Part shown: positions 17,079 to 50,515 of the stretch, piece by piece
Numbering within the stretch: position 1 is the stretch's first letter
Layout: every line of letters starts with the position of its first letter
NCBI RefSeq assembly: GCF_000002075.1
Contig: NW_004797525.1
Location: 705,124-769,123, forward strand
DNA length: 64,000 nt
Reading direction: 5' to 3'
Source: Aplysia californica
Lineage: Eukaryota
Notes under the pieces: generated by a model
What the model saw: the letters and a program-made list of their open reading frames with translations, nothing else
Database searches by the model: none
What the model was told of the DNA's origin: nothing
Position numbers and translations under genes: made by a program

Positions 17079-17132
<54 letters not shown>

Positions 17133-27151: not shown

Positions 27152-27905
27152 TTAGCCCTTTGTGCCTCGGAGGAACATTTTGTCCAGGATCTGCTTGTAC
27201 TTTGAACTCATGTTGTAATACACAAAGATATTCACTGCGGAATTCGTTGCTGATAAGGAAGCAGAAAATGACCAAACCACTAATATCAGCAAAAACAAAT
27301 CTCCGTATTTCCCTGATGCGGTATATTCGGGTTCTAAACTTTGTGCAATAAAGTTAATTACACTTGGCGAGAGGCATACTGTGAAAATGATCGCAATAAA
27401 TAGAACCAACTTCACAACTTTCTTGTCTCTATTTGAAAAAGCATCATGATCTCCAGAACTGGAAGTAGACTTCCGCCATTTTGACTTACTAATAAGGTTT
27501 TGGACAAGGATTATAGAGCAAATGATGACGATGCTAAAGGTAATGAGTTGAGAGAAGGCATTAATCAAGATAACAGCACTTTCTATGGCAAAGCCGTTGG
27601 TAATATAAACGATTCTTATCTTGGTCTCGTTCTTTAGAGGAGAGTATCTGGGCTCCAGACGAAGGGCATAAAACACTAGCAGCAGGGCACCTATCATTGC
27701 CACGTATATGCTAACGAGTGCGATAACTGTTCTCTTTACTGTTATCATTGTTTTAACTTTCAGAGGCACAGCAATACAGAGACATCTTTCCAGCATTATG
27801 GAGGCTGTAATCCAACCAGAGATACGTGAAAAGCAAGTACCTGGCCACCCTGCCGTGAGATACAGGACATCCTTGGGATCAAAAGGCAGACACGCATTTG
27901 CAAAG
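27152..27905 (-). pseudogene. GPCR copy A: rhodopsin-type chemosensory/FMRFamide-receptor-like, 5'-truncated (lacks N-terminus, TM1, TM2)
   Basis: TM3-TM7 open (MLERCLCIAVPL, NSAVNIFVYYNMSSKYK). Homology to copies B and D stops at about 27905 (FANACLPF); upstream sequence is unrelated. Confidence 0.8.
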
Positions 27906-28470: not shown

Positions 28471-28538
28471 TATAAAAGAGAGACAGAGGACTAAGAGCCA
28501 CTGTACATCGCCTTGGTACATCTAATCAACACGTAGGT
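28471..28538 (+). promoter_or_regulatory. TATA box, likely TSS (about 28500) and short non-coding exon 1 of peptide copy 1
   Basis: TATAAAA at 28471-28477, CCACT Inr-like motif about 28 nt downstream, donor AC|GTAGGT at 28533 that can pair with the acceptor at 29833. Confidence 0.55.
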
Positions 28539-29179
28539 ATCAGCTCCTGTCTAAGGGAAAAGGTGGGTACACACGATGACACTTATGCGAGTCGAGAGTC
28601 CAGCTGCCTCATCTTTTGAGGTCGAGACTCGTTGAGGACGGTTCGTTCACAATGAGATCTCTGAGTTGTGTGACGTATCTGGTCTTTCTGACGTGAGACA
28701 AGTATAATTATTTATACACATTGTAAAGGTGTTGTCATGTAAAGCAATTGTCATGCGATCGCCAAGGGACGGACAAGTAGAACACAGAACACAGTAAATC
28801 GCTCTCCNNNNNNNNNNNNNNNNNNNNNNNNNNNNNNNNNNNNNNNNNNNNNNNNNNNNNNNNNNNNNNNNNNNNNNNNNNNNNNNNNNNNNNNNNNNNN
28901 NNNNNNNNNNNNNNNNNNNNNNNNNNNNNNNNNNNNNNNNNNNNNNNNNNNNNNNNNNNNNNNNNNNNNNNNNNNNNNNNNNNNNNNNNNNNNNNNTCCA
29001 GAAGGGCACTTTGGTTTACAAAGGCAAACATATATATGTAAATAAATATACATAATTATAAATACGTACACACATAAATACATTCAACAAATAAATTTAT
29101 AAATAAATACACAATATTACTCAAATACAGAACAGTCTACAACCACGCCATTTTCTGTCGCAACAGAGCAGGGCCCTGA

Positions 29180-29653
29180 ACTGTCTCTTATCAACTATCT
29201 CTGGTCAACTGTCTTTTGCCAACTGTATTTTGCCAACTATCTCTTGTCAACTGTCTCTTGTAACTGTCTCTTGTCAACTGTCTCTAGTCAGCTATCACTT
29301 GTCAACTGTCTCTTGTCAACTGTTTCTTGTAACTGCCTCTTGTCAACTGTCTCTTGTCAACTATCTCTGGTCAACTGTCTTTTGCCAACTGTCTCTTGTA
29401 ACTGTCTCTTGTCAACTGTCTCTAGTCAGCTATCACTTGTCAACTGTCTCCTGTCAACTGTCTTTTGTTAGCTGTCTGTTGTCAACTGTGTCTTGTCAAC
29501 TGTCTTTTGTAAACTGTCTCTGGTCAGCTGTGTCTTGTCAGGAGTCTTTTGTCAACTGTCTCTTGTCAACTGTCTCTTGTTAATTGTCTCCTGTCAACTG
29601 TCTTTGCCAACTGTCTTGTGTTAACTGTCTCCTGTCAACTGTCTCTTGTCAAC
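29180..29653. repeat. 15-bp minisatellite (TGTCAACTGTCTCTT)n in the peptide-gene intron; paralog ends near 46135
   Basis: Direct inspection. Confidence 0.92.
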
Positions 29654-29856
29654 CAAGGACCCACACAAAAGCTTGTGGTGAACCCATCTAAAAGAGCGGT
29701 TAGCTGTGCTTCTCCTTCTCGTCCGTTGTCGTTCGTGAAGTAGCTCTTTGCTTGATTTTACCCACACAGAGATTTGGCAAAGTCTGGGAATTGATTTGTG
29801 CTGTTGTCTTTATTTCTGTATTTCTTCACCTAGCCACGAGACAAGCTAACAACAGC

Positions 29857-30108
29857 ATGAGGCTCTCGTTTCTCCCGTCTCTTCTGCTGGTTCTTTTCCT
29901 CGTCCTTCACGGGCACGTAGGGAAGACATCGGGATGTAGAAAAGATCCCTACCCTTACACAATTGAATATAAAGTACATAATGTGCAGCGTGATGTGAGA
30001 GGAGACCTGATGGACCAGCTTCCCTCTGATGAGACAGATATTTTGACAAGGACCACGCAACAACATTCTACCTTACTCAAGAAGAAAATCGAAGCTTCCT
30101 CACCATGA
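29857..30108 (+). CDS. small secreted prepropeptide, copy 1 (83 aa: MRLSFLPSLLLVLFLVLHGHVGKTSG-CRKDPYPYTIEYKVHNVQR-DVRGDLMDQLPSDETDILTRTTQQHSTLLKKKIEASSP)
   Basis: Hydrophobic signal peptide, good start context (agcATGa), acceptor tttcttcacctAG at 29833, upstream TATA and non-coding exon, frame kept in the paralog at 46340. Confidence 0.72.
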   Translation: MRLSFLPSLLLVLFLVLHGHVGKTSGCRKDPYPYTIEYKVHNVQRDVRGDLMDQLPSDETDILTRTTQQHSTLLKKKIEASSP

Positions 30109-33100
30109 AAAAAAGGTGAGATATGATTGTATGCTGTAGCAACAGACGGAAAAGGTTAGAGGTTAAAGGTGAAAAAAGAAATATTTCTGATATAAACAAC
30201 AGTCAATAATAAGCTCTAGGTATTAATATAGTTCTACAATAATGATAATATTATAGAAAAGACAAAAAAATCTTCAGAGATAAAGAAAAAAAAATCAAAC
30301 TATACTTCACAAGGAGAGGTAGTCACCAATAATAAGTTCAAGGTGTCAAACATTAAGAAACAGACAATAAATATTATGAAATATCGAGTGCGAATTCATT
30401 ATCTTCGGGAGGACCAAAACAATAGGAGTTCCAGCAAAGTTCTATAAATTCTGGGTATAGAAGTTTTGAGAGGACACAGTTTAACGTACATGTATATTGT
30501 GTTCGGTCTTGTTGAGCTGTGGACAAAAATGAGTTAGGTTCACATCTGCCAGGTCAGTTTGGTTTGGATCATATTTTTTTACACTGTAGGTTGGAACTAT
30601 GTTTTCTAGTTTTCTTTCAGGGAGCAATTTTTAAATTATAATGTATTGGTTTTGTTTTAGCCCAGTTTCATTCGTTTAGTCCTATCACATTTCGTTTACT
30701 TTCTACATGCCCTGATGAGTTTGCTGTAACTTATGTTGCTTATTTAGTTCTTCAGCTGTTTTTAGTTACGTTTGGGTTCCACAGTGAAACTGACTTTATT
30801 AATTATCTATTTCTGCTCTCTTTAGTTTGGTTTGGCTTAGAGAGTCTAGTTTACTCAAGGTAAGTCTCAACTTAACTGTGTTAAAATTTACATTCTCATT
30901 GTAACTGGATCTACACAGATGTAATTTTTGCTATCCTAATCATTTTTTATTTTAGATGTATGTGACACCGTAGAACATTCGATGTGTTATTGAACAATCC
31001 AACACAATAGCTCTCCGTGTGGTTTAAAATGTACACCTCTGTTAAATACCAAAGTGAAAGATGAAATACGCGTGTATATGTTACAAAAGCAACATACTTA
31101 TTTCGGAAAGCCAACTTCCCCACCCACTTTTACAAGACACGGGTATAAAACTAATCCAAATAGAATAATGACAAAATCTTGGATATAATGGCAAAATTTC
31201 TGGCATAAAGTCAATTTCCAATAAAGCCAAGTCAATTGAATGGAAGACTGGGATAACCTAACAACGCACATTCTAAATCATCGCGTTGTACATTTGATCC
31301 AGGACCACTTGGGTTTCTGACAGTCTAGCGTGACAGCCGTGGCGCGAACTAAACAAACAATACTACTCGTTGTACACTGATGACCATGTCAGAATTCGTT
31401 TTTCTACCAGCACTCATGTCGAGCTGTTTATTTTAAACCTCTGATTTCGTCAGCGTTTTCTGATGCTGACCATCAACGCTTACTAGTCAAGCATGAATCT
31501 GTCCCCGTCGTTTTATTCAAGGAAAATCCTGAAACTATGCAAAATGAGCCCAAAAGATGTGAAATTATAAGATTCTGATAATTTAAACTAAGAATGATAC
31601 AAAGAAAATAATCATAAATTATGCCAGAAATGAACACATTTTGCTAAATTATGCGGGGTGCATAAACCCAGGGGTACAGATGAATCAAAAGTGTTGTTAC
31701 GTTCGTGTTTATCATCTGCACTCATGTCTCAGTGTCCATTTTTCACCCTCTGATGTCAGCAACGACTTCTGATACTGACCATCAACCTTTTCAGGACAGG
31801 AACAAATCACCAGTGACGCGATCTGAGGCTTACGACACGGCTGGAGTCCCACAAGATCAACCAGCTGCCAAATTTTAATTAAATACTGGCTCCAACGTCA
31901 CCTCCAATAACAACAACGACGACAACAATAAAACTACAACATAATCATCATCAGCAACAACAACAACAGCAACAAAAACCACCAACGACAACGGCAACTA
32001 CAACAACAACAACAATAAAAAAAAAATAACAACAAGGAAGAAAGTCATTGTTTTCATTTTTAAGACAAGGGTCTCACGGAATGTGTCTTAACAACATCAA
32101 AAGTGAGACAAGGCTGCATCCTTTCACCCCTTTCGCGTCCTTGGTGTAGGCACTTCGCTGTTGCACACAGTAGGCCTGAGTTCGATTCCCGAGTGGGGAG
32201 AAAAAATGTATCGAGTGTTTTGGACTTTCTGCTTGGGTATTGCATCCCTCTCAGCCCGGATTGGACCTGACAGACGGGGTCGGAAGCCCACCTCCTAAAT
32301 GATATTTATTTTGGCGATGTGGGTGTAAAAACTGAAACATTCAAAAAGAGCAAACTCTTCATCGCCACACACACCACCAAAGTGAAGAAAACATGCAGCA
32401 AATGTGACACACAGTTCAGCACCAACAAAATGTGTCACAACGCGGTGGTATCAGGCGTTCCTCAATTTTGGGACATGTTGAGTTATTGGTATCGTCTTAA
32501 AGATTGCTCGTTTGTCTCGAACCCACGGTCTTACTGATGCGAGTCTGAGAGCCTAATCACTAGGCCACCGATCCTTCTAGGTTTTATACATTTGTATGTC
32601 TAACAATCTAAACACTAAACTTTACCACGTTGTTTGTACATGTGTCCTGGAGTCACAGTAAAAACTTTTTTTAAACTTTTAACCCGGTACGATTCGATTC
32701 TATTGAGTTTACATGCAATGTTTTGCAGTAAGATCATTCATCGCTTTTTAAGCATGGCTTTTATCCCCTACCCCTCAAAAACAACCAAAGACCAGAAACA
32801 AAAACAAAAGAGCAAAAAACAAACAAACCAACAACAACAAAACAAAACGACTTTGAACAAAAAAAATCAACTATGAGGAACCGTCTAAACCATAAGCTAG
32901 TTGAAGGTGTAAAGTTATATAGATTGTATATGCACACAGGATTAATCTAAAAGAAATATTCAAGAAAAGTGTAGAGGTGTATGGCAAAGAATGTGAATAG
33001 AAAAAGCAGGAATATTATTTCTGAAACTTTTTGTGCAACTCAGGACAGACGAATATGCAACTTGCAGGACTCCGATAAAGTCAGAGGTTAGCATTCTGCC

Positions 33101-33339
33101 AAGGAGTTGTTCACCTCTGTGTTTCGTTTAAATGTTATTAAAAATGCTTCTCGGTGGTCTTTCGGATTGGAACACATATCAATACATTGAGCTACCATTA
33201 TTGTTGTGGACAGTTGCGAGAATCTGTTTACGATATGAGCAGTGACACTGTTCTCCAATAAGACGACATCACTCTTTACAACGGGAATCAAATTACAGAC
33301 TTGATCCAAAGGCAGGATTAGGGATACCTGGATACCTGG

Positions 33340-34320
33340 ATACCTGTAACTGTCATCTCTGCCCCAGAGGTTGACGTGTAATGACCCTCCATCTTTCACG
33401 GTCGCTAGCTGCCGTTGCACATTCTGTCGTATCCAGGACAGTCCATGTTCTTATGTTGCTCATCAATGCAATATTTTGCCTTCCTCTAGCTCTCCTGACC
33501 CACATCTTTCCTTCAAGCACCTCTTTCACAATGGTCTCATATCGTTTTGAGTGGCCATAGTATTGTATTTTTCTACATTCTATTTTGTTCAGCAAGGTTT
33601 GTCTTGTGTGTAGAATCTGACACACCTCTTTGTTGGTCTTTTTTGTTTTCCAACTTATTCTGGCCATTCTACAGTAGCGCCACATCTCAGACGCATATAT
33701 TTTGTTTTCTTCTTTCCTTGTCAAAGTCCAGGTCTCTGCAATATATATGAATATGGGGAAGGTGTAGCAAGACAGCATTTTCTTTCTTAAAGTGAGAGAT
33801 ACTTGCCTGGATTTAAATAGTTTGTACATTTGGCTGAATCTTGATTTTGCAGCCTGCTGATCTTATATTCATTACCTTTTCACTTCTTCCATCGTTTGTG
33901 ATTGTTGCCCTTAGATATTTGAATGGGCGTACTTGATTTATCCACTTCCCATCAATATCAATGGTTATGTCTGTTGTTGTCCCAGAAGATTTTGATAAGA
34001 CTCTATATGAGGTTGGGGGGGGGGGGAGATTGGCATTGATGTCGAGGCCTGTCTTGCTGCTGTTCACTTTTAGTTCTTTCACAATTTTAGAAAGATATTC
34101 GTTTGTGTTTGCAAGCAGAACTGTATCATCCGCGTATCTAGGGATTTTAATATTATTCTGATATTTTATTACACACTTTAATTGCTGCCTCCTGCTGCCA
34201 GTAAAGCTTTCCTATTATTCGTATATCTCTGCCATCAATACCTATCTTCTCCAAACATTCAATCATGCTGATGTGATGGATTCTGTCAAAAGCTTTTGAA
34301 TCGTCAATGAAGCAAGGAAA
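33340..34320 (-). mobile_element. decayed RTE-like LINE within duplication unit 1
   Basis: YADDTVL, FKYL..ITNDGRS, ETWTL, YYGH motifs. Confidence 0.8.
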
Positions 34321-35720
34321 GAGGTCTTAATGGACTTGAATATTTTTCTGTACTACTGTGTTCATGTAGACGATTCCATTTCTATTGCCTCTTCCATACC
34401 CGAAGCCGAACCATTCTTCTCCAGTTTTTTGTGGGAGGGATTTAAAAAAGTGTGTGGGGGGAGGGGGGTGGGGGGGTGGGGTGGGGGGTTTATTGTGGCA
34501 TCCTCCTCACATTCCCAACCATGTTCCATTCGAATTTCATCTTTTCTGGTTTCAAGAGCTTTTTTAGTTGGAAAGAAGCCCAGAGAATAATGTGACAATT
34601 CTATCGCAGACGTTCGCTTTTGTCTATGGTCTTTTCATCAGGTGTTTTCCAATATGAAAATCCTGGGTTAAGATGCTGGTAAAAAAAACCTCTTAGATTT
34701 GCATAGGAACAATCCTGAAAACTAGCCTAGAAGTGAGTGAGGGTTATTGAGATCCATACAAAATTTCTTTCCCACTTGCCATTTTCAAATTACTTGACAG
34801 AGAGCCCTCGTACACACACAATACATAAAAACAACTCAACAAAAGCCAAAGTTTAACAGACAAACGTTTATTGCTTCTGGTTGTCTATCCACTCAAGATT
34901 TGATTCTTCTTTTTTTTAAAAATAATCCAGTGTGCTATATCAACTCTCCTGTTATATTAAGTAGTTTGTGTAAATACAGAGGGTTGATTTTTAAGTGGTG
35001 CCAAATTAGAGAGATAAAAACAAGGAGGAAAAAATGATAAATATGATACAGATGTGTAATAAGCCCAAAAATAATAACAACACAGCAAGTAGTACATCTA
35101 GTTAATGGACTTTGGAAGGAAAGCTCCGGTTCTTTACGAGGGGGGGGGGGGGAGTGCTAAAGGGATCTTTTATTATTTTCTGTGAAGGAAATGTATATGA
35201 AATCAGTATAGGTCCCTTCAGCCATGGGTGAAGAATAAATCTGAAACTATTCTTACGAAATATCTGACGTGTCAACATCAAAGAATGAACTGGGTTGTCG
35301 GAAAGAGAACTCTTCGACTGGATACCAGGCTCAGGAACGCAGAAAATCATCTCGACAGCTTCGCAGCACTCGGGACCTTCAGACCACGAGTGATTCCCGT
35401 CAGCCCCAGAATTGACAAACAAGGTCAAAGCAGCCTGCTTCCTAAACCATTTAAATCGTGCCAATGGGACATAAATAATTTATTATCATTTTTGGGTCTG
35501 TGGCAATGTTGGTTTGGTTTCTTTTTAAGGTTTCGTTTTTATTTTCTTAAAAACAAATGTCATAATTATTCCTTTTCTTTTCGAAGTTGTCAGGATTTGA
35601 TCATACTGTATTTTCAAATCATTAGTTAGGCAGTTTCAAAGGCTGGTCAAAACTCACAGTTGGTTTGTATATTATAATAATATACGTTTTCGAAAAGTAG
35701 CAGCTCTTTGTGTTCTAATA

Positions 35721-36748
35721 TTAGCCCTTTGTGCATCGGAGAAGCATTTTGTCCAGGATCTGCTTGTACTTTGAACTCATGTTGTAATACACAAAGATAT
35801 TCACTGCAGAATTCGTTGCTGATAAGGAAGCAGAAAATGACCATATCACTAATATCAGCAAAAACAAATCTCCGTATTTCCCTGATGCGGTATATTCGGG
35901 TTCTAAACTTTGTGCAATAAAGTTAATTACACTTGGCAAGAGGCATACTATGAAAATGATCGCAATAAATAGAACCAACTTCACAATTTTCTTGTCTCTA
36001 TATGAAAAAGCATCATGATCTCCAGAACTGGAAGTAGACTTCCGCCATTTTGACTTACTAATAAGGTTTTGGACAAGGATTATAGAGCAAATGATGACGA
36101 TGCTAAAGGTAATGAGTTGAGAGAAGGCATTAATCAAGAAAACAGCACTTTCTATGGCAAAGCCGTTGGTAATATAAACGATTCTTATCTTGGTCTCGTT
36201 CTTTAGAGGAGAGTATCTGGGCTCCAGACGAAGGGCATAAAACACTAGCAGCAGGGCACCTATCATTGCCACGTATATGCTAACGAGTGCGATAACTGTT
36301 CTCTTTACTGTTATCACTGTTTTAACTTTCAGAGGCACAGCAATACAGAGACATCTTTCAAGCATTATGGAGGCTGTAATCCAACCAGAGATACGTGAAA
36401 AGCAAGTACCTGGCCACCCTGCCGTGAGATCCAGACCTCCTTGGGATCAAAAGACAGACACGCATTTGCAAAGGAAGGGTTAAAACCAATACTCAGCCAG
36501 AGCGACGCAATCAGTACCCCTATATCGGCAACGACCAGGCTGAACAAAGAGATGATCACCGTGTCTTTAAAGCCCTGTCTGATAAAAACGATTAGGTTGA
36601 TGACGTTAGCCACAATGCCAAAGAAGCTGATGGCTCCTAAAATAATTACGTAGAAACTGATGACAAAAATTGCAAGGACTAGATCGTTGACCATTCTGCT
36701 AGGCAGTGGTCCAAACGACGTTCCATAAGTTTCGTTTCCAGAGGCCAT
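35721..36748 (-). pseudogene. GPCR copy B: full span, 1-bp frameshift near 36432 (342 aa if repaired)
   Basis: MASGNETYG start at 36748. The span is 1028 nt and splits into two ORFs; gccgtgagatccagacctcc is 1 nt shorter than in copies A and D. Confidence 0.8.
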
Positions 36749-37390
36749 CTCTGTTCTCTTGTGGCGTTTCTCCAACACCTGAACTTGCACAAACACTAGA
36801 GCTGTATAAATAGAGAACAAACGACGTGTTGATACGACCACCAGAGCCTGCCTGTTAAATTTTGAAAATCTTATTTGAGTGCGCGAAATGAACTTAAATA
36901 AATATTGTTTAAAATTAATAGATAAATGAGTAAATGAAGAGATAAATAGATACATAAGTAAAAGAATAGATAAATAAATAAATAGCATATAATAANNNNN
37001 NNNNNNNNNNNNNNNNNNNNNNNNNNNNNNNNNNNNNNNNNNNNNNNNNNNNNNNNNNNNNNNNNNNNNNNNNNNNNNNNNNNNNNNNNNNNNNNNNNNN
37101 NNNNNNNNNNNNNNNNNNNNNNNNNNNNNNNNNNNNNNNNNNNNNNNNNNNNNNNNNNNNACTGCAATTAAAAAGCTATTATCCACACTCTCCGCACGCT
37201 GTATTAGTTTAGATAAACCATACAGAAATGAATAACACATAAACGATTCAGCAAGTGCAGACAACGTTTATAAAAATAAAAAAATGGTTTTAACAAAAAA
37301 GAACAACGAACTTTTGTTTCCACATAAATCCATAAAGATTTGCTTTCTTCGCTCTGAATAGTTCAAGAGTATGTTATGCACAATGAGACC

Positions 37391-37922
37391 GGGGGCTTTC
37401 GTGGCCAAGAGGTTAAGGTGGCTGCCTCTCATTCAACAGGGCCAGGGTTCAAGTCCTGACAGCGACTGAACAATTTCTTGTCTAAAATGTTTCCCTTTAA
37501 CCCTCTTTCCTGCTCTCTAGCAATGTTCTGTCGTCTGTTTGCGTCTCCGATTCCCCCCCCCCCAAACCTACTTTGCCCCCTCCTCTAGGCCCCCGACTCT
37601 TTCTGCAGCCTTTATACTGCTTCTCCTTGGCTCATTCTCACCTCTGATTTTATGGTAGGTCTTATCTAGCACCTAGCCTTCTCGGACAAGAGCCAAAAAT
37701 CCCCGAAGTCCCGTGTGCGAGTCACGTACGCTAAAGATCCCTTGGTGGTCCAAAATCGATAAGAGTAGCCTTCGGCCGCCACCCGGGCAAAGTTCAAAAT
37801 GTCCTACCAACTGAAGCTGTTCAGTGTGTCCCGCGCGCCCATAAGACCTTACGCAGTTGTGAACGCGCGTAAAACACTTACCAAGAAAAACAAAAACAAA
37901 AACAAAAACAAAACAAAAAACA
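37391..37922 (+). mobile_element. tRNA-derived SINE family 2, full length
   Basis: GTGGCCAAGAGG/GGTTCAAGTCC boxes, LINE-type tail plus (CAAAA)n, TSD ACAATGAGACC. Confidence 0.82.
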
Positions 37923-38009
37923 ACAATGAGACCTAAAATATTTACATTCTATTACGTTTCGTTTTGAACTGCAAAAACCTAACATAAAAAAGATAATTTA
38001 ATTGTGAGT

Positions 38010-38128
38010 ACCTTTTTCCGTAGTTGATGTGGAACAGATTCTAACTAGACAACAGCTTCTCAGTGAGACTATAAGGACACAAGACCCAGTTGACAGTTTC
38101 AAGTACACACGCCTCCAATACTTTATAG
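38010..38128 (-). promoter_or_regulatory. candidate TATA box and non-coding first exon of GPCR copy B
   Basis: Minus strand: TATAAAG near 38122-38128 and donor AAG|GTACTC at 38011. The homologous block lies at about 58815-58950; an acceptor-like tttcaacAG sits about 100 nt upstream of the copy D ATG. Confidence 0.35.
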
Positions 38129-38391
38129 AAATTATAGAAATAAGTAAGCATTTAATTTAGTAGATCTATCCTTTTGGTATTTCCCCGTTAACGAAGCATT
38201 CGCACTAAGTGTACCCTAAGTTGAAACATCAGAACAGTCAACGGGTGAACGTTCAACGTCATGGTCAGGAGAAAAAAATGACGACCTGTTTTAAAAAACG
38301 ATATCGTCCTTGTTGTAAACCTTTTAAAAGTCTGTAGAAACCACGCATTGGAATTTTGTATTAGTATTTTTATGAGGATTTTTTACGTTTA

Positions 38392-38630
38392 CCCTATCCG
38401 CACGTCGTGTTTTACCTTCTTATCCATATGACGTGAGGAACTCTGTGCAACCACGTTCCAAAGAGGAAATTTACTCGTTAATCCGATCCGTACGCTTTGC
38501 ATAGCAGTCTGTGAAAATGATTTTTGGAGAAACACTGAAAGTTTCAAAGAGATCTTCCGTCTAGAAGTATTCTATAATGTGAAGAATATAACCCCTGGGT
38601 ACAAAATGACCTGGGGGTTTATGGATGAGG
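38392..38630. mobile_element. piggyBac-like MITE (same family; duplicate at 41731-41969, partial inverted copy from 16933)
   Basis: CCCTATCCG...GG|TTAA termini; internal identity to the 54967 copy. Confidence 0.72.
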
Positions 38631-39772
38631 TTAAATTATGGCTATGGCGTTTACAAATAACCCAAACACGGTAGTATATCTTGCATAAAACCCAATGGAT
38701 TTTATTTATTTGGATTTTTTTTTTTTTTTCACCAAAAGTAGACATTTTTTTAAAACCCTAACTAGTAAGCGGGAAAACCCTAAGACCAATGACAAAAACA
38801 ACAGAACGAAATATTCCGTGAATGTGGATCACCTACCNNNNNNNNNNNNNNNNNNNNNNNNNNNNNNNNNNNNNNNNNNNNNNNNNNNNNNNNNNNNNNN
38901 NNNNNNNNNNNNNNNNNNNNNNNNNNNNNNNNNNNNNAAGATTTGATTCTTCTTTTTTTTAAAAATAATCCAGTGTGCTATATCAACTCTCCTGTTATAT
39001 TAAGTAGTTTGTGTAAATACAGAGGGTTGATTTTTAAGTGGTGCCAAATTAGAGAGAAAAAACAAGGAGGAAAAAATGATAAATATGTTACAGATGTGTA
39101 ATAAGCCCAAAAATAATAACAACACAGCAAGTAGTACATCTAGTTAATTGACTTTGGAAGGAAAGCTCCGGTTCTTTACGAGGGGGGTGGGGGTGGGGCT
39201 AAAGGGATCTTTTATTATTTTCTATGAAGGAAATTTATATGAAATCAGTTTTGGTCCCTTCAGCCATGGGTGAAGAATAAATCTGAAACTATTCTTACGA
39301 AATATCTGACGTGTCAACATCAAAGAATGAACTGGATTGTCGGAAAGAGAACTCTTCGACTGAACACCAGGCTCAGGGACGCAGAAAATCATCTCGACAG
39401 CTTCGCAGCACTCGGGACCTTCAGACCACGAAAGTCAACGGACGAGTGATTCCCGTCAGTCCCAGAATTGACAAACAAGGTCAAAGCAGCCTGCTTCCTA
39501 AACCATTTAAATCGTGCCAATGGGACATAAATAATTTATTATCATTTTTGGGTCTGTGGCAATGTTGGTTTGGTTTCTTTTTAAGGTTTTGTTTTTATTT
39601 TCTTAAAAACAAATGTCATAATTATTCCTTTTCTTTTCGAAGTTGTCAGGATTTGACACACTGAATTTTCAAATCATCAGTTAGGCAGTTTCAAAGGCTG
39701 GTCAAAACTCACTGGTTTGTATATTCTAATAATATACGTTTTCGAAAAGTAGTAGCTTTTTGTGTTCTAATA

Positions 39773-40395
39773 TTACCCCTTTGTGCATCGGAGAAGCATT
39801 TTGTCCAGGATTTGCTTGTACTTTGAACTCATGTTGTAATACACAAAGATATTCACTGCGGAATTCGTTGCTGATAAGGAAGCAGAAAATGACCATATCA
39901 CTAATATCAGCAAAAACAAATCTCCGCATTTCCCTGATGCGGTATATTCGGGTTCTAAACTTTTTGCAATAAAGTTAATTACACTTGGCAAGAGGCATAC
40001 TATAAAAATGATCGCAATAAATAGAAACAACTTCACAATTTTCTTGTCTCTATTTGAAAAAGCATCATGATCTCCAGAACTGGAAGTAGACTTCCGCCAT
40101 TTTGACTTACTAATAAGGTTTTGGACAAGGATTATAGAGCAAATGATGACTATGCAATCAGTACCCCTATATCGGCAATGACCAGCCTGAACAAAGAGAT
40201 GTTCACCGTGTCTTTAAAGCCCTGTCTGATAAAAACGATTAGGTTGATGACGTTAGCCACAATGCCAAAGAAGCTGATGACTCCTAAAATAATGACGTAG
40301 AAACCGATGACAAAAATTGCAAGGACTAGATCGTTGACCATTCTGCTAGGCAGTGGTCCAAATGACGTTCCATAAGTTTCGTTTCCAGAGGCCAT
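39773..40395 (-). pseudogene. GPCR copy C: about 406-nt internal deletion (late TM2 to TM5) with a stop at the junction
   Basis: At about 40150, DIGVLIA joins directly to TM5 sequence and creates TAG; 623 nt versus 1029 nt expected. Confidence 0.85.
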
Positions 40396-40656
40396 CTCTG
40401 TTCTCTTGTGGCGTTTCTCCAACACCTGAACTTGCACAAGCACTAGAGCTGTATAAATAGAGAACAAACGACGTGTTGATACGACCACCAGAGCCTGCCT
40501 GTTGAATTTTGAAAATCTTATTTGAGTGCGCGAAATGAACTTAAATAAATAAAAATAAATAAATAGATAAATGAGTAAATGAATAGATAAATAGATAAAT
40601 AAGTAAAAGAGTAGATAAATAAATAAATAGCATATAATAATAACAATATAAAATGA

Positions 40657-40657
<1 letters not shown>

Positions 40658-40730
<73 letters not shown>
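40658..40730. repeat. (AAT)n microsatellite; other SSRs: (CT)n 52-98 and 1548-1620, (GT)n 2072-2152 and 17080-17129, (AG)n 4459-4520, (AT)n 54333-54390
   Basis: Direct inspection. Confidence 0.95.
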
Positions 40731-40732
<2 letters not shown>

Positions 40733-40982
40733 TAACAACAAAAATATTGCAACTGCATTTAGAAAAGCTATTACCCACACTCTCCGCACGCTGTATTAGT
40801 TTAGATAAACCATACAAAAATGAATAACACATAAACGATTCAGCAAGTGCAGACAATGTTTATAAAAATAATAAAATAATTTTAACGAAAGAGAACAACT
40901 GACTTTTGTTTCCACATAATTCCATAAAGATTTGCTTTCTTCGCTCTGAATAGTTCAAGAGTATGTTATGCACAATGAGAAA

Positions 40983-41312
40983 GGGGGCTTTCGTGGCCAA
41001 GAGGTTAAGGTGGCTGCCTCTCATGCAACAGGGCCAGGGTTCAAGTCCTGACAGCGACTGAACAATTTCTTGTCTAAAATGTCCCCCTTTAACCCTCTTT
41101 CCTGCTCACTATCAATGTTCTGTCGTCTGCTTTCGTCTCCGATTTCCCCCCAAACTTCCTTTGCCCCCTCCTCTAAGCCCCTGACTCTTTCTGCAGCCTT
41201 TATACTGCTTCTCCTTAGCTCATTCTTACTGCTGTCTTTCAGCCACACACCTGATCGTATGGTAGGTCTTATCTAGCACCTAGCCTTCTCGGACAAGAGC
41301 CAAAAATCCCCG
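40983..41312 (+). mobile_element. SINE family 2, 3'-truncated (duplicate of the 37391 copy)
   Basis: Same head at the same flanking site as 37391. Confidence 0.75.
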
Positions 41313-43547
41313 GACGATAGATGCTCCATAGGAAAGAAGAAGCAAACCACACCCAGAGCACCCGCCAACCACGCATAACTTTTTTTCGTAACTGTATATA
41401 AAATACTACAGATCTCTGTCACGCGTAAAACGGGATTGTTTACTGCACCTCCCGCTTTTCACTCATAGTTTGCATACGCGTATGGCCTACTTCACAGCTC
41501 ACCAAAGGCACTTTATAGTGGCAAAACTTGTTACAAGAATTAATTAACTTTATAGTGAGCACTCTGTCTTAGACTAAAGGTTCTCAAAACTTGCGTTCAA
41601 CGTCATGGTCAGAAAAAAATGACGACCTGTTTTAAAAAACGATATCGTCCTTGTTGTAAACCTTTTAAAAGTCTGTAGAAACCACCCATTGGAATTTTGT
41701 ATTAGTATTTATAAGGATTGTTTACGTTTACCCTATCCGCACGTCGTGTTTTACCTTCTTATCCATATGACGTGAGGAACTCTGTGCCACCACGTTCCAA
41801 AGCGGAAATTTACTCGTTAATCCGATCCGTACGCTTTGCATAGCAGTCTGTGAAAATGATTTTTTGAGAAATACTGAAAGTTTCAAAGAGATCTTCGCTC
41901 TAGAAGTATTCTATAATGTGAAGAATACAACCCCTGGGTACAAAATGACCCCGGGGCATATGGATAGGGTTAAATTATGGCTATGGCGTTTACAAATAAC
42001 CCAAACTCGGTAGTAAATCTTGCATAAAACCCAGTGGATTTTAATTATTTGGATTTTTTTTTTTCACCAAAGGTAGACATTTTTTTGAAACCCTAACTAG
42101 TAAGCAGGAAAACCCTAAGACCAATGACAAAAACAACAGAACGAGATATTCCGTGAATGTGGATCACCTACCACCTAGCACACGGGAGGGGGGGGGGGGC
42201 GAGGAGATCATGTACGGCTTTGTATGAAATTAAATCTTTAGAAATCGTAACAAAGAGAGAGGAAGCCGGGAGCGAAAGAACACTCCAACGTCGTTAAAAG
42301 TCTAACAAATTTAATTTGTGCTCGTAACAATTCCTCTTAAAAAGTCAGTCGGTCTACACTGGTTATTGACTTAGATGTATTCGGAAATCAGAGACGGAAA
42401 CTTTGGTTGCAATATTGTTTCAATTTTGTAACTCCCTACAAAACCGTGAATGCGATGGATACTTTCCTAGACATGAGCAAACAAAAAATACTGAGAAATA
42501 CCAAGGGCGAAGTTCTACAGAAAAGGACGGAGAGTTAAATTATATAATCAAAGACCGTTTCTTTTTTAACTTTCTCATCCCTTCTGAGTTAATGAGGTCA
42601 TTATTTTGGCGAGCGACTGATCTCACCACGAATTTTTGTTATCAAAGTTATTTTTATATTGTAGTTATCTGTGACACCATAGACCATTCCATATGCTGTT
42701 AAACAATCCGACACAGCATCTGTCCATGTAGTTTAAAATGTTGTGAGAGAGATAAAAGGGGGAACATCATATCACTAGCTTTGTGGGAAAATTCGCATCA
42801 AATTGTACACATCTGTTAAACACCACCAAAGTAAAAGATGAAATACATGTTACACGAGCAACACACCTATTTCTCCGAGCCAACCCCCTCCCTTAAAAAA
42901 TCCTTTTCCAAAGCACAGATGTATAACTAATCCCAATAGAATAATGGCAAAATATTGGACATAATGGCAAGATTGCTGGAATAAAGTCCATATCCAAATA
43001 GCCAAGTCAATTGAATGGAAAGCTGGGATAACCTAACAACACACATTCTAAATCATCGGGTTGTAGATTCGAACCAGGATCACTTGAGTTTTAGTCTAGT
43101 GTGACATCTGTGGCACGAACAAGACAGACAAAACTACTGGTTGTACACTGATGACCATGTCAGGAATTCTTTTTCAATCAGCACTCATCTTGCGCTGTTT
43201 ATTTTAAACCTCCGAATTCGTCAACGTTTTCTGATACTGACCATCTCCGTTTACTAGTCAAGAATGAATCTGTCCCCGTTGTTTTATGAAAGAAAAATTC
43301 TGAAATTAAGCAAACTGAGCCCAAAAATGTGAAATTGTGCGATTGTGATAATTTTAACGAAGAATAATAAAAGAAAAAAACAGAAATTATGCCAAAAATG
43401 ATCACATTTTGCTAAATTATGCGGGGTGCATAAACCCAGGGGGACAGATGAATCAACAGTGTTGTTACATCGTGTTTATCATCTGTACTCATCTTGCAGT
43501 GTCCATTTTTCACCCTCTGATTTCCTCAACGACTTCTGATACTGACC

Positions 43548-44506
43548 CAACAGTACACACCAGAGGAGACTCCATCCTGAAGCCTCCATTTTCTCTGCGG
43601 AGGCCACTGCCATTGACATGGCACTGGACTCCCTAGAAAATTCTCCAAACAAATCTTTCCTAATCCTTTCTGACTCTCTGTCTTGCATCACCTCATTCAC
43701 AAACTACACACTCTTACACCCAAAAATAGTTAGGCTACAACAGAAATTCACACACTATAGGAGACGAAAAAACAGCATGTTCGCATGGATACCTCGCCAT
43801 GTGGGCATCCGAGGAAACGAGCAGGTAGACGACCTGGCGAAGGAAGCCTCATCCCTTCTGCTGGGATCAACGACAAACACTCTCCCTCAGACTGACTTTA
43901 GAAATAAAGTAAAGTAAAAAGTACACCTCCAGTCTGTGGGAGAGCCACTGGGAAAAACAGAAAAACAATAAACTATATTCTATAAAACCCAAACTAGAAC
44001 AGCGAAATCCTTTGGACCTCCCCAGAAGAGACGAAGTCATTTTTACTCGATTGCGCATCAGACACAGGACCCTGACCCACAAATACCTCCTACAGGGAGA
44101 TGAGAAGCCGTTGTGTGTCGGATGCGACACAGATTTTACCATTAAACACATCTTAACCGAATGTCTAGACTTTGGAGAGATCCGAAGGAAATATTATAAA
44201 TGCAACAAATTGCAAGACATTTTTCCGTCGTTGGTCCCAGCAGAATTTTGAATTTTATGAAGGCTATTGGCCTTTATGGCAAATTGTAAAGAGAAACAGT
44301 ATTGTTTAAAAAATGTTATTGTTATTAATAAGAGTTGTTTTAAATCGCAAATATATTTACCCTGAATTTTAGTATTTTAGCATTTTAAGATCTAATTGTC
44401 GACAAACCGTGCAGTGAACTATTGCGAATGCTACCAACTTGTGTTTCGCGCGCTCATATGACCTTAGGCAGTTGCGAGCGCCGTAAAACCCTGTACTACT
44501 AACTAA
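43548..44506 (+). mobile_element. RNase H-bearing I-group LINE, 5'-truncated
   Basis: SIFSAEATAI, ILSDSLS, WIPRHVGIRGNEQVDDLAK, RLRIRH..LTH, C..C...TIKHILTEC; 12-bp TSD CTGATACTGACC (43536-43547 and 44507-44518); empty sites near 31770 and 51850. Confidence 0.9.
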
Positions 44507-46339
44507 CTGATACTGACCATCAACGTTTCCTTGACAGGAATAAATCACCAGTGTCGGGATGCGGGGCTTTAGACACGGACGGAGTCACCCAAGATCAGCA
44601 AGCTGCCAAACGTTTTCTTACCGCAACCTCGACCATCATCTCCAATTACAACGACTATAAAACATGAACGTAAACGAAGAGAGTCATTGCGTTTATTTTT
44701 ACTTAATTAAGGAACAACGTGCCATGAGTTAGAGTGAAGATATAGGTTTACACTAAGGCTATTATATCTCGAGCAGGATTGGATACTGGTCAAGGAGTGT
44801 GGTTCGTTTCTGTTTGGCTAGTGCTCAGGATTGAAAATAACGAAAAGGACAAGTTTAGTGGTTTTGTTAGGTGTTAGAGTATAGTGGTACAGTTGGTTAA
44901 AATTTGGGGGTTGAATTTAGAAATAGGGGTTAGGGTTTGTTACTACATTAATTAGGTACCTTAAAAAAAGCAATTGTAGACAGTCTATTAAAAGAGTAAC
45001 TCTTTCAAAAACGCACACATTTTTAATTCCGTTTCAATTCGGGTTTGAAATTTTGAAATTTAGATAAACTCAATGCCCCGTTAATAAGAACAAATTGTTC
45101 AAGTGCACTAGAAGGGACCATCTTCATGGAGCTTGGAGTCAAAAGTTTTCCTTGTTTAAATTACAACGGCTAGAAATTAGTGGACTGACTACACTCTGCC
45201 ACTCTCTAACTATGCTTGGTGACTACACGTAATATAACATTAAGTCTTTCCTCCACTGATCCACGTCTTTGGCAAAGCTGTCTGCACATGGTCGCTTTTA
45301 AGCGCAAAGGAGCTATCCCAAACAATGCTGATTTGAGAAAATTGAAGGTTAAGTTTTTGCCCCTTGTTCAGTTTCTTTAAAAGACAAGGAGAGTTTTCTC
45401 TATAACCAAACAAATATACATACGAATGAAACCAAACTTCTCTTATAGGTAGGGCAATGCCCACTTTTGGTGTTGGTCAAGATTNNNNNNNNNNNNNNNN
45501 NNNNNNNNNNNNNNNNNNNNNNNNNNNNNNNNNNNNNNNNNNNNNNNNNNNNNNNNNNNNNNNNNNNNNNNNNNNNNNNNNNNNNNNNNNNNNNNNNNNN
45601 NNNNNNNNNNNNNNNNNNNNNNNNNNNNNNNNNNNNNNNNNNNNNNNNNNNNNNNNNNNNNNNNNNNNNNNNNNNNNNNNNNNNNNNNNNNNNNNNNNNN
45701 NNNNNNNNNNNNNNNNNNNNNNNNNNNNNNNNNNNNNNNNNNNNNNNNNNNNNNNNNNNNNNNNNNNNNNNNNNNNNNNNNNNNNNNNNNNNNNNNNNNN
45801 NNNNNNNNNNNNNNNNNNNNNNNNNNNNNNNNNNNNNNNNNNNNNNNNNNNNNNNNNNNNNNNNNNNNNNNNNNNNNNNNNNNNNNNNNNNNNNNNNNNN
45901 NNNNNNNNNNNNNNNNNNNNNNNNNNNNNNNNNNNNNNNNNNNNNNNNNNNNNNNNNNNNNNNNNNNNNNNNNNNNNNNNNNNNNNNNNNNNNNNNNNNN
46001 NNNNNNNNNNNNNNNNNNNNNNNNNNNNNNNNNNNNNNNNNNNNNNNNNNNNNNNNNNNNNNNNNNNNNNNNNNNNNNNNNGTCTCTTGTCAACTGTCTC
46101 TTGTTATCTGTCTCTTGTCAACTGTCTCTTGTCAACCAAGGACCCACACAAAAACTTGTGGTGAACCCATCTAAAAGAGCGGTTAGCTGTGCTTCTCCTT
46201 CTCGCCCGTTGTCATTCGTGAAGTAGCTCTTTGCTTGATTTTACCCACACAGAGATTTGGCAAAGTCTGAGAATTGATTTGTGCAGTTGTCTTTATTTCT
46301 GTATTTCTTCACCTAGCCACGAGACAAGCTAACAACAGC

Positions 46340-46711
46340 ATGAGGCTCTCGTTTCTCCCGTCCCTTCTGCTGGTTAGTTTCCTCGTCCTTCACGGGCATG
46401 TAGGGAAGACATCGGGATGTAGACCTTTATACAACCCAAATATAAACGACTTTGAAGTAAATTATCTTCGGCGTGATGTGAAAGGAGACCTGATGGACCA
46501 GCTTCCCTCTGATGAGACGGACATTTTGACAAGGACCACGCAACAACATTCTCCCATACTCAAGAAGAAAAGCGGTGTTTCTGATGAAGACAGGAACATA
46601 TTGATCATAAAACCAGTGCTTCCCGATGATGATGATGAAGAAGAAAACGATGGAGACAAGAACATTTTCACAATTCAACTAAGCGCAAAGGATGAAGCTT
46701 CCTCACCATGA
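46340..46711 (+). CDS. small secreted prepropeptide, copy 2 (123 aa: signal, CRPLYNPNINDFEVNYL, RR, acidic spacer with KKK site and DDDDEEEND)
   Basis: Paralog of 29857..30108; differs by an in-frame 120-nt indel; dibasic RR and tribasic KKK convertase-type sites. Confidence 0.72.
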   Translation: MRLSFLPSLLLVSFLVLHGHVGKTSGCRPLYNPNINDFEVNYLRRDVKGDLMDQLPSDETDILTRTTQQHSPILKKKSGVSDEDRNILIIKPVLPDDDDEEENDGDKNIFTIQLSAKDEASSP

Positions 46712-47050
46712 ACAAAAAGGTGAGATATGATTTTATGCTTTAGCAACAGACGGAAAAGGTTAGAGGTTAAAGGTGAAAAAAGAAATATTGCTGGCATAAA
46801 CAACAGTCAATAATAAGCTCTAGGTATTAATATATTTCCACAATAATGATAATATTATAGAAAAGACAAAACAATCTTCAGAGATAAAGAAAAAAATCAA
46901 ACTATACTTCACAAGGAGAAATATTCAACAATAATAAGTTCAAGGTGTCAAACATTAAGAAACAGACAATAAATATTATGAAATATCGAGTGCGAATTCG
47001 TTATCTTCGGGAGGACCAAAACAATAGGAGTTCTAGCAAAGTTCTATAGA

Positions 47051-50000
47051 CTAGACACACTCGCGTTCTACGAACGGTGATGTTGTTGTTGTTGTTCGTC
47101 CTTCACATATAAAGATGACCATGACTTCACAAATTGGTCTGTTGACAGTGACTGTGGGTCCGGAGATGGCTGATGAGTCCTATCCGGGCTCGAAAGGTTC
47201 GTCCACATTGTGGGCACGGGTAGTCTGCTGTTGGACTTGTGGTGGAGGCAGGTCTGGACTTGCGCACGTTGCATTTTTGTTTGGCCTAGGCGATTCGCTT
47301 GGCTTCTGCTGCTTTGGCTCCCTTCGTTAGCTTGCAGCGCCACGCGGGACGATCTAGGGCCAGCGTTCCCCACGAGTCGTTCAGGATTTCAAGTTCCTTG
47401 CGAGAGAATTTGAGGCAGTCCTTGAAACGTTGTTTCTGCATACCAACTGATCGCTTGCCATGGAGCAGCTCTCCATACATCAGCTGTTTTGGCAACCGGC
47501 TGTGCGCCATTCTGATCACGTGGCCGGCATATCTGGCTTGCGTTTTGTGGAGGATGGTGTAGATGCTGGGGGTTCCGGCTCGCTCTAAAACAGCAGTGTC
47601 TGGGGCTTTGTCCTGTCATTGGATGCGGAGGATTTTACGACGACAGCTCAGGTGGAATCGATTGAGCTGCTTGGCGTGTCTGCTGTAGACAGTCCAGGTC
47701 TCGCTGGCGTAGAAAAGAATGGTGAGAACCACAGCCCGGTAGACCTTCAGCTTTGTGGAGAGGCTGAGTCCTCTGCGCTCCCAGACATTCTTGCGAAGCC
47801 TCCCAAAGGCGGCGCTGGCCTTGGCAACTCTGGTGTTTATTTCAGCATCTATATGTACGGCTCGTGAAAGTGTGCTGCCTAGGTAGGTAAAGTGGTCAGC
47901 TGCCTGGAGTTTCTGTCACTTCACCAGGATTTGTGGCACTGTGTGATAGTGACAGGAAAGCCCAAGATAACATGTTAGTTCCGGTACTTGATTCATTGCC
48001 GTAGGACCTCTGTGCAGGCAACATTGCTAGTATACTCGCCATCTGGAACTCCGTCCTGGGTAGCAGGTCTGTTTACATGCATCCTAATAGATTCCCTGGA
48101 CCCAACACGACTCATTGCGACATATAATTGTCCATGGGGAAAAATCGTCCTGTAAAGAAACCCCTATCCTTTTCAAAGTCTGTCCCTGAGCTTTGTTGGC
48201 AGTCATTGCAAAAGTAGGTCTTACTGAAATTGTTTCCGTAGCATATGGAAGGGAAATACATTGTCTGAAAGCATTAGGGGAAGCCTTGGGATGAAAAGTC
48301 TCTTTCCGACATGTGGACCTCAAGCAACGACAGCATCAATTACATGTTGATGAAGGTGTTGAACCACATATCGAGTCCCGTTGCAGTGGCTGTTTGTGGG
48401 ATCCAGATTTCTCAGCAACATGACAATGCTGTCTTTCCGCAATGTCAGTTTGTGGAGTGGCATACCTGACGGACATAGAGAATTGATAAATTCGATGGGG
48501 TATTGGTGTTCATTTTCTTCCACCGAATCACTGCTCTTGTAGACTTTTTCTTCTCCGGGAAAGAACTGCATGATCAGGTTGTTGATTCTGTCTACTTCTG
48601 TGTTGGTTGGACAGATGATGCAGCATGAAACCAGCCAGTCAGGATTTGTGTTAGACAGCAAGTTACCGAAGTATCAACTCTCGTTTGCTCCTTACTGTGA
48701 TGTCATCTGGCAGTTTTATCGCAAAGTTCCCGATTTGCTTGCATTCCTTGTGTTTGCCATCACCAATGTTCAGTAGATATTTGGAGAAATCAGCAGTCTC
48801 ACCTGTAAACGAAACCCTCATGTTTCTTGTCAGTCTGAGCACATTACCATGCTCCCACAGATATGATTTCAAGGTTGCATTTACTATCTGTGATCTTGAG
48901 CTATGGCGAACTACTGGTAGTATTTGGCGACAGTCACCCGACATCAGCACAGTTAGCCCACCGAACAGAGAGTTATTCCCAAATATGTCTTGAAGTGTTC
49001 GGTTTATGGCTTCTAAGATGTGTTTGTGTCCCATCGATACTTCATCAATGATGAGCAGCTCTGTTTGGCGTAATAAAGTGCCACTGGCATCTCGGGGACT
49101 CACACTGCACATGGACTGTTCGTTCACACACAGAAGTATGGTATTTTGCATCTGCTGTGTAATGTTCTGCCATTTGAGAGCAGAGTTGCTGCAATGCCTG
49201 ACAGAGCTGTAGCAAGGGTGATCTTCTTAAAGGAACGGACAGCCTAAAGAATCAGGTTTATAGTGTGGGTTTTCCCAGTCCCTCCACTTGCCCCAGGGCA
49301 AATATCTTGTCTTGTTTCTGTACAACTGACTCTATCACAACATTATACACTACTCTTTGTTCTTCATTAAGCTTTGAGTACTCTTGGCTCACCTTCTCTC
49401 AAAGGTTGAAGTTCATTTAAAATGTCTGGCCGTAAAATATGTGACAGTCTCAGCCTATCCTGAAGTTCTGTGGCAGAGTCATGAAAAAAAACCTGGGCAA
49501 ACTTTGGTACAGTTCCAGCAGTGGGAAGAAGATTTTCTAATCGGGGGGTACGGCTTGCTCTGGATTTTGAAGGTTGGATTGAAGCCCGTTTCAGCTTGTT
49601 CACTGCACCCAATTGAAGCAAGGGCGAGAGCATTATTGTATGACCTACAGTGTGGTAAGAAAGAGCTGCCGCTCTGTGCTACATAGTTATATTTCATTAA
49701 TTCCAGAGGAGGTGGGGGAGGTACAGGTATACTAACCTTTCCATTTTGACTGCAGAATGTATTTCTCTCTTCTCTCCATCTTATGGCATTGCAATGATCA
49801 CAGACGACACTGAATTTACCACAGTCATATGTCCGTAATCTTCGGCCAACTTTAGTTTCACTAAACGACTGTGCGTTGCACGCTGTGGCCAACGTTGGCC
49901 CATTCTTTCTTGGCCTAGCACGTTCAAGGTCTTCCTCCAGATTATGACTATGAGAACGTAAATTCTGTTTGACAGTCGCCTTTCTCCGTTTCCTCTCGCT

Positions 50001-50515
50001 TTGACCTCTGTTTCGTGGGTTTAAACAAACTCTACGTTTAAGGGGCATCTTACTACATTATTAACTTTATTAACTAATATTCCATGGGCCAATAGAAGTA
50101 GCTGAAATATAAACTATGTGGCATACACAAACGACAAAACACAAACCACACTTGTGTCCATGTTAACTACTTCAAAAAAGTATAACTCTGTGGCACACAC
50201 ACGACAAAGCAGAAACCTCACTTCTGTTCTTGCGAACTACTCACACGCACAACAAAGCTCGGGACCGAAACAGAAGCAGTCCCCAGTACAATATGAAATG
50301 GCGAAAGGCAGAGTGAAAACACCCGAGAGCTTCGATTTACAGGAAAAATCATCAAACCTGAAAAATCAAAAGGTAGTTTCCGAACTTTGAAAATATGCCC
50401 ACGTAACCCATTGGGGCAATTCTGGTCTGAATCATATTTTTGTAGATTTTATGGGCACTTGTGTAAAAGGTTTTTACTGACCCCACAAACGAGCTTTAGC
50501 TCCATTATAATAAGA
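47051..50515 (-). mobile_element. Helitron, internally deleted (PIF1 helicase and N-terminal Cys-rich remnants, no Rep/HUH)
   Basis: 5' TC at 50515 and 3' CTAG at 47051 with hairpin CGTTC-GTA-GAACG; inserted between A and T (empty site ctataaa|ttctgg near 30447). Motifs GASGGTGKT, LLIIDEVSM, GDCRQILPVV, MLLRNLD..CNGTRY, FAMTANKAQGQTL; frameshifted. Confidence 0.9.
47082..47942 (-). mobile_element. RTE-clade LINE 3' fragment nested in the Helitron
   Basis: RMAHSRLPKQLMYGEL, CPQCGRTFRARIGLISHLRTH zinc finger, (CAA)n tail, flanking GTGAT direct repeat. Confidence 0.85.

Follow-up and report, generated by a model that had tools for sequence, protein, structure and literature searches.

A candidate family of secreted peptide precursors in Aplysia californica with a short hypervariable block between conserved flanks

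Two copies of a precursor-like gene

We analyzed a 64,000-nucleotide stretch of the Aplysia californica genome (contig NW_004797525.1, positions 705,124 to 769,123, forward strand; hereafter 'the window') that carries two copies of a small gene predicted to encode a secreted peptide precursor. The open reading frames (ORFs) of copy A (29857–30108, 83 residues) and copy B (46340–46711, 123 residues) each lie in exon 2 of a predicted three-exon gene. An initial annotation of this DNA had described a hypervariable mature peptide flanked by a conserved signal peptide and propeptide, and had proposed that it belongs to an undescribed family under diversifying selection. All of its counts were reproduced: the two copies differ at 4 of 84 nucleotides over codons 1–28 (the signal region plus a Cys-Arg pair) and at 5 of 99 over codons 45–77 (9 of 183 for the pooled coding flanks). 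The 16 codons in between (codons 29–44; 29941–29988 in A versus 46424–46471 in B) differ at 23 of 48 nucleotides and 14 of 16 residues, without an indel or a stop codon. The excess of differences in this block is highly significant (Fisher test, p=1e-11), and when the 32 differences were permuted over the 231 nucleotides, none of 100,000 trials placed 23 of them in any 48-nucleotide interval (maximum 20).

The block retains identity at 25 of 48 positions, compared with 14–15 in shuffled sequences (P=0.0005–0.0015), and is therefore diverged homologous sequence; a non-homologous replacement was rejected on this ground. It is likewise homologous, equal in length (16 codons) and free of stops in four close copies, with a mean difference of 43%, so that it is neither a foreign insertion nor an assembly artefact. 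Both outcomes had been named beforehand as refuting the proposal, and both are excluded. The acidic tail of copy A is shorter than that of B by a net 120 nucleotides, and the same junction (joint 46571–46694) is also found in a contig from sequencing run X1 (a public sample, probably DNA), indicating that it is not peculiar to the assembly.

Copy A is predicted to begin with a 26-residue signal peptide (29857–29934, + strand) that has a hydrophobic core at residues 8–17 and a long c-region. Gly26 is the sole invariant small residue of that c-region, being present in 15 of 15 aligned proteins, whereas Gly19 and Gly22 vary; this favors cleavage after Gly26. The predicted mature peptides would then comprise 18 residues in A (29935–29988, +; net charge +1), followed by R-D-V-R, and 17 in B (46418–46468, +; net charge −1), followed by RR. 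The block had been said to be bounded exactly by the signal cleavage and a basic site. It does lie near both, but it begins two codons past the predicted cleavage (C27 and R28 are common to both copies) and its last codon encodes the first residue of the RR pair in B, so that the correspondence is approximate. The N-terminal cysteine, previously described as invariant, is common to A and B, yet of the 18 readable family copies only 11 have Cys at residue 27.

Downstream, there is one R/R-x-x-R site in copy A, with a short tail, and in copy B an acidic C-terminal pro-region of 78 residues with a net charge of −11 (46475–46708, +). In the three readable copies most closely related to A, the 16-codon block is retained and followed by RR, and the blocks share a loose pattern (Pro at position 5, an aromatic residue at 10 and Val or Met at 12). 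Across the four close copies the predicted peptides are 17–18 residues long, with net charges of +1, −1, +1 and +3 and isoelectric points (pI) of 4.4, 8.2, 8.2 and 10.3; they are non-cationic, contain zero or one cysteine and lack a cysteine framework. In other subfamilies the cores are shorter or differently placed and the tails are frameshifted. Several other subfamilies (copies L027, L032, L033, L035 and L039–L041) carry a motif of a basic residue followed by Phe (PRF, GRF, IRF or PKF) directly before the acidic stretch, and at that position the window's subfamily has MDQ plus 15–19 additional codons. The hypervariable block may be a subfamily-specific extension.

A family of copies in the Aplysia genome

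DNA searches of the genome yielded at least 19 copies on 10 contigs, 18 of them with a readable exon 2, thereby adding 17 to A and B; these are minimum figures, and two of the copies are possibly allelic. The result bears out the proposed family of paralogous, precursor-like genes, in which conservation of the signal region goes with a basic site and a short N-terminal peptide that varies. One copy (L027, C158:62996) is nearest to copy A in its 5' part (93%), resembles other subfamilies in its 3' part and then runs into unrelated sequence; it is possibly a chimera.

A profile built from 15 family proteins matched only two database entries. Both are uncharacterised Aplysia gene models (one is titled 'uncharacterized protein LOC101862148 [Aplysia californica]'), and both represent distant paralogs from this very genome. 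Profile searches of two large protein libraries found no relative outside Aplysia. Neither ORF matched any Pfam family at E values up to 10, single-sequence protein searches gave no match, and an exact look-up in a 15-billion-protein collection found none of 10 family proteins. A search among longer proteins, a weak test, also gave no match, and the best ESM Atlas score (0.83) offered no lead. The PDB profile search returned MotB alone (E 0.05), which we took as chance. Four family peptide motifs and LOC101862148 were not found in the literature, and neither were papers on Aplysia exocrine peptidomics (subscription papers and most supplements lay outside both searches). The family is thus apparently undescribed, with no named member in the libraries or literature searched.

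These searches bear on one alternative, namely that the genes encode an internal neuropeptide or hormone family acting inside the animal. The prepropeptide layout and basic cleavage sites would suit such a family. Neuropeptides and other endogenous ligands are usually conserved, which together with the lack of a Pfam family and of relatives beyond Aplysia in the two libraries makes this an improbable explanation. As a weak further indication, LOC101862148 is absent from two nervous-tissue transcriptome supplements (PMC8195618, PMC11488329).

Gene conversion and probable selection

The sequences on either side of the block have different ancestries. Before it, all five informative sites group A with B and C with D, and after it all three group A with C and B with D (p=0.018), so the flanks are evidently mosaic as a result of gene conversion among copies. 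Divergence between A and B likewise varies along the gene, from 0.7% in the promoter to 2.5% at the end of intron 1 and 4–7% in intron 2. On contig C441 (L026/L028, 207–221 kb), an intact copy and a copy without an ATG are identical over 426 nucleotides spanning the whole block and exon 2, while neighboring DNA is 73–95% identical and the synonymous divergence (dS) of the adjacent receptor genes is 0.15. Conversion can therefore cross the block, although it has not done so among intact copies.

By the Nei–Gojobori method (NG86), the block in A versus B has a nonsynonymous divergence (dN) of 0.80, a dS of 0.64 and a ratio (omega) of 1.25, compared with a dN of 0.038 and a dS of 0.095 in the flanks. 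Across the six pairs of close copies, block omega ranges from 1.0 to 2.7, reaching 2.5–2.7 in comparisons with the copy on contig C1772 (described below). Synonymous sites are raised as well (block dS 0.35–0.64 versus 0.07–0.22 in the flanks), which we attribute to gene conversion evening the flanks. We also fitted a codon model to four copies, anchored by 486 non-coding columns and excluding the start-less copy E and copy F (whose exon 2 falls in a gap). In its free form (omega 2.8, rate 2.9) the block differs from the flanks (omega 0.41; p=0.004). In simulations of neutral evolution of the block in four copies, the probability of encountering no stop was 0.08, and that of no indel, with indels scaled to substitutions as in the introns, was 0.007–0.08 (the intron pairs are non-independent), which points to constraint on the reading frame. 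A second subfamily repeats the pattern, with its block differing by 38–49% versus 10–12% for the signal region, 22–24% for downstream coding sequence and 14–29% for introns.

Several observations weigh against selection and against functional genes. A model of pure selection (omega ~9; log-likelihood (lnL) −1781.83) and a neutral one with a 6.3-fold raised rate (lnL −1781.98) fit equally well, and the free model improves on neither (p=0.11 versus selection alone, p=0.09 versus omega=1), so that omega above 1 in the block is not significant (p=0.09). These p-values are moreover generous, since the block was picked after A and B had been compared. Diversifying selection in the sense of dN/dS above 1, as put forward initially, is accordingly not established: the A/B omega is 1.25 and the codon model cannot separate selection from a neutral increase in rate. 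Replacements in the block are no more conservative than under neutrality (P=0.13), the signal region is only moderately constrained (variant ratio 0.54–0.73), and two other close sets of copies lack a divergent block (3/36 and 1/18 nucleotides). Several family copies are broken by a lost ATG or an early stop. A collapsed assembly could imitate the 426-nucleotide tract on C441, and A and the C1772 copy could be alleles and not paralogs.

Transcript data point the same way. A search of sequencing runs found none recorded as RNA that contains the stretch. Run X14 (1.5 Gb of raw polyA reads) has zero depth on exon 2 of B, and runs X4 and X13 gave only low-depth contigs on copy B, unspliced into introns. 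The joint between exons 2 and 3 of B (46719–51872) is not listed in X14, X4 or X13, nor do the repeat-dominated run tables for copy B list any block variants. The transcription expected from the initial proposal was thus not seen as a spliced transcript in these three RNA or possible-RNA runs; their tissues are unknown, and expression is therefore neither shown nor excluded. The lack of coding-exon reads in X14 fits, weakly, a tissue-restricted product.

Taken at face value, such observations could mean that no selection for difference is involved. The genes would then be decaying or under little constraint, and the block would be either a local hot spot of mutation or a patch of old divergence that conversion happened to miss. 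Besides the raised dS, the equal fit of omega=1 at a 6.3-fold rate and the lack of expression in the runs examined, the prevalence of transversions among the A/B block differences (17 of 23) is in keeping with this account, and for conotoxin exons a hypothesis of error-prone replication exists (PMC3862624, in the part available). We nevertheless consider it unlikely: the block has neither a stop nor an indel in four copies, in two subfamilies the peak falls on the predicted mature peptide, and the copy without an ATG is not diverged in the block, contrary to what a hot spot would produce. Given that gene conversion is evident, a peak of divergence held against conversion is the best reading of the data, and such peaks have been described as the mark of selection acting under conversion (PMC3924837, in the part available). 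Selection is likely, though unproven, and we think it probable that it keeps the block apart between copies.

Predicted gene structure

The exon structure was predicted from signals conserved across copies. Copy A is preceded by a TATA box (28471–28477, +) within a predicted promoter that aligns across copies. The TATA/exon-1 stretch has 19 matches in the genome, 17 of them upstream of a family copy. One isolated TATA/exon-1 remnant (L045, C634:92571) lies 12–24 kb from two G-protein-coupled receptor (GPCR) genes, with no coding exon found. Exon 1 (28500–28532, +; start approximate) is predicted to be untranslated and ends at a GTAGGT donor at 28533 that is kept across copies. Intron 1 contains a 14-nucleotide tandem array (29179–29653, +; Tandem Repeats Finder (TRF)) present in copies A, B, C and F. 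Exon 2 (29834–30115, +) consists of a 23-nucleotide leader and the ORF, with a GTGAGA donor at 30116. The positions of its acceptor, 23 nucleotides before the ATG, and of its donor, 7 nucleotides after the stop, are kept across copies; the acceptor AG is retained in 18 of 18 readable copies and is also used by two public models of distant paralogs. Exon 3, predicted to be 3' untranslated, starts at 31795 (31795–31905, +) with an acceptor kept among copies (an alternative AG is at 31798–31799), and the homologous acceptor is used by public gene model P0002. The TATA box, exon-1 donor and exon-2 acceptor are kept in at least 17 copies.

The promoter of copy B falls inside a stretch of Ns (45485–46081, +). 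The first 2.3 kb of contig C1772 (1–2321) overlap both edges of this gap (window 45261–46108), with 100% identity over 224 nucleotides on the left and an exact 27-nucleotide match on the right, and the end of C1772 shares 98.6% identity with A over its TATA box, exon 1 and intron 1. C1772 is either a second haplotype or a piece absent from the assembled tandem array. Exon 2 of B is predicted at 46317–46719 (+), with its donor at 46720, and exon 3 begins at 51872 (51872–51981, +; 97% identical to that of A). The intron between them has received a 3.5-kb transposon-derived insertion (47049–50514, no strand assigned) with a PIF1-like helicase fragment (PF05970, E 2e-35), whose joint (47048–50515) is also found in a probable-DNA run. 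A very high-copy short repeat in the same intron (51418–51823) is abundant in polyA reads, with loose poly(A) ends at 51632. Upstream of B, an insertion-split relic of intron 2 and exon 3 from an older copy (42631–44610, +) forms part of the repeated unit and is also present in C1772.

Interleaved chemoreceptor-type genes

Genes for rhodopsin-type GPCRs (PF10324 Srw, PF00001), without introns, make up the repeated segments that separate the peptide genes. A 5'-truncated chemoreceptor-type copy (27152–27904, −; PF10324 Srw, PF00001) abuts the region upstream of A, a frameshifted copy (35721–36748, −) is convergent with A, another is broken by an internal deletion (39773–40395, −), and the copy convergent with B (57140–58057, −) ends at 305 residues where intact relatives have 339. 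All four GPCR copies in the window, including those beside A and B, are thus broken. Intact receptors stand next to three further peptide copies and also 21 kb from B. Judged by length and motif, these intact relatives (intronless, 338–339 residues, with a motif in the third transmembrane segment (TM3) matching the WITAFVTFERCLCIA-like motif of AcCRb) resemble the AcCRb candidate chemoreceptors of the rhinophore and oral tentacle, which are intronless proteins of 319–364 residues bearing that motif (PMC2700072, in the part available). In this cluster, omega is 0.45–1.26 in the outer halves of the receptors versus 0.17–0.36 in the inner halves.

The window's peptide subfamily is co-duplicated with these receptor genes. 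Five of its six copies, on three contigs, have a convergent close-clade GPCR 6–11 kb downstream, and the sixth is followed by a gap. Such an arrangement, and the receptor motif shared with AcCRb, raise the idea of a linked ligand–receptor cassette, in which each peptide gene would be paired with a convergent GPCR that detects its peptide, forming a recognition locus. The genome, however, contains at least 129 receptor loci (perhaps more than 1,000), so that it is simpler to suppose that receptor and peptide gene came together once by chance and were then copied by segmental duplication. Both A and B adjoin broken receptors, and peptides and receptors do not diverge in step: receptors near A, B and F share more than 90% of their sequence whereas 14 of 16 residues differ between peptides A and B, and the two receptors on C441, whose neighboring peptides are identical, have diverged mostly in the outer halves (dN 0.19). 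No close-clade receptor was found within the 25–110 kb examined around the 13 copies of other subfamilies (C1265 alone has two distant ones), and for two intact close receptors the nearest 30 kb contain no peptide gene.

Strict peptide–receptor pairing was rejected because of the broken neighbors, the lack of co-variation and its absence from other subfamilies, and we regard a working cassette as very unlikely. The same low standing attaches to the related suggestion that these are hypervariable identity or mate-recognition peptides, the youngest subfamily of which sits in a duplicated cassette with a GPCR that reads them. If true, it would supply the first peptide ligands for Aplysia orphan chemoreceptors and an animal counterpart of linked pheromone–receptor loci.

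Elsewhere in the window, scattered exons at 7689–20528 (+) belong to a hemopexin-repeat gene (PF00045, E 6e-7 at 20061–20525). A phospholipase-C-like stretch was seen by eye in the vicinity of 11328–11660, with no Pfam match. Tandem arrays of 92 nucleotides (20993–21473; self-BLAST) and 57 nucleotides (52409–52636; TRF) complete the observed features.

Possible role of the peptides

Several features reported here were not part of the initial annotation, namely the three predicted exons per gene, 17 further copies, the signal of gene conversion and the GPCR genes lying between the peptide genes. That the genes encode functional secreted precursors is in our view very probable. The interpretation we favor, with a probability of roughly 0.4, is that the peptides are secreted by a gland as signals in mating or social life and that selection, working against gene conversion, keeps them diverse. 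The precursor would be secreted through its signal peptide and cut after Gly26; a convertase would cut at RR or R-x-x-R, and trimming of the basic residues would leave a linear peptide of 17–18 residues, with the acidic tail discarded as a pro-region. The peptide would then act on a receptor in another animal, and selection would keep peptides different between copies while conversion evens the flanks.

Reproductive secretions often evolve fast. The charge range of the peptides (net −1 to +3) and their lack of a cysteine framework suit a signal, and Aplysia employs water-borne and contact protein pheromones (PMC2700072, in the part available). A role in reproduction or communication is a tentative assignment made by exclusion and by analogy, which itself counts against it.

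A somewhat less favored possibility, which we consider doubtful, is that these are defence peptides from the skin, gill or a defensive gland, engaged in an arms race with microbes, parasites or predators in the manner of the myticalins. The myticalin layout (signal, variable linear core, dibasic site and anionic tail) is common to both families, and the gene structure is alike (three exons, an untranslated exon 1 and an intron just before the ATG), as is the occurrence of pseudogenes. Myticalin cores, on the other hand, have pI values above 11, more than 10% Arg and lengths of 23–42 residues, as opposed to pI 4.4–10.3 and 17–18 residues here, and profile searches found no sequence match between the two. 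Charge does not exclude a deterrent that targets receptors.

Aplysia is a classic model for peptide signaling and pheromone-driven mating, and here it has at least 19 predicted peptide genes without a named member. The peptides are short enough to be synthesized and tried on behavior, the rhinophore, microbes and the neighboring orphan receptors. The locus, with its peak inside a single exon and a start-less copy as a control, also offers a clean natural test of why synonymous sites rise in mature peptides such as conotoxins and antimicrobial peptides.

Comparison with known systems

We compared the family first with the known mating products and hormones of Aplysia itself. Attractin, enticin, temptin and seductin are secreted mating products (PMC2700072, in the part available), as is proposed here, and attractin has 58 residues. 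The egg-laying hormone (ELH) family (PF02323) is, like the peptide family, tandem in Aplysia. Attractin and a full-length ELH precursor are encoded in the genome on contigs other than those of the peptide family, and the ELH relatives are in tandem. An attractin or ELH identity was rejected, there being no match to PF08037 (Attractin) or PF02323, and none of attractin, enticin, temptin, seductin or ELH appeared in the profile searches.

Myticalins and modiocalins, from Mytilus and Modiolus, have a conserved signal and anionic pro-region around a hypervariable linear core, as here, and myticalins also share a dibasic site, three exons with an untranslated first exon, an intron 1 placed before the ATG, and pseudogenes with the genes predicted here (PMC5577615, in the part available). 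The Aplysia cores differ in being shorter and non-cationic, and the entire A and B ORFs are contained in exon 2. Sequence similarity between the two was not found, the published signal consensus differs, and myticalins are limited to Mytiloida.

Conotoxins likewise form a gastropod multigene family with a conserved signal and a very diverse mature peptide, although the signal, pro and mature parts are for the most part encoded by different exons and the toxins carry a cysteine framework (PMC3862624, in the part available). In the Aplysia family, by contrast, a single exon contains the peak, which follows immediately on the signal, and no peptide has more than one Cys. No Pfam or database match linked the family proteins to a known conotoxin superfamily signal. 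A close parallel to the pattern of divergence itself is exon 5 of the genes for red and green opsins in humans (PMC3924837, in the part available), where selection maintains a small target of high divergence amid converted, near-identical flanks. Compared with that case, the Aplysia family provides few copies and no outgroup orthologs, and the target of divergence is the whole of a predicted peptide ligand.

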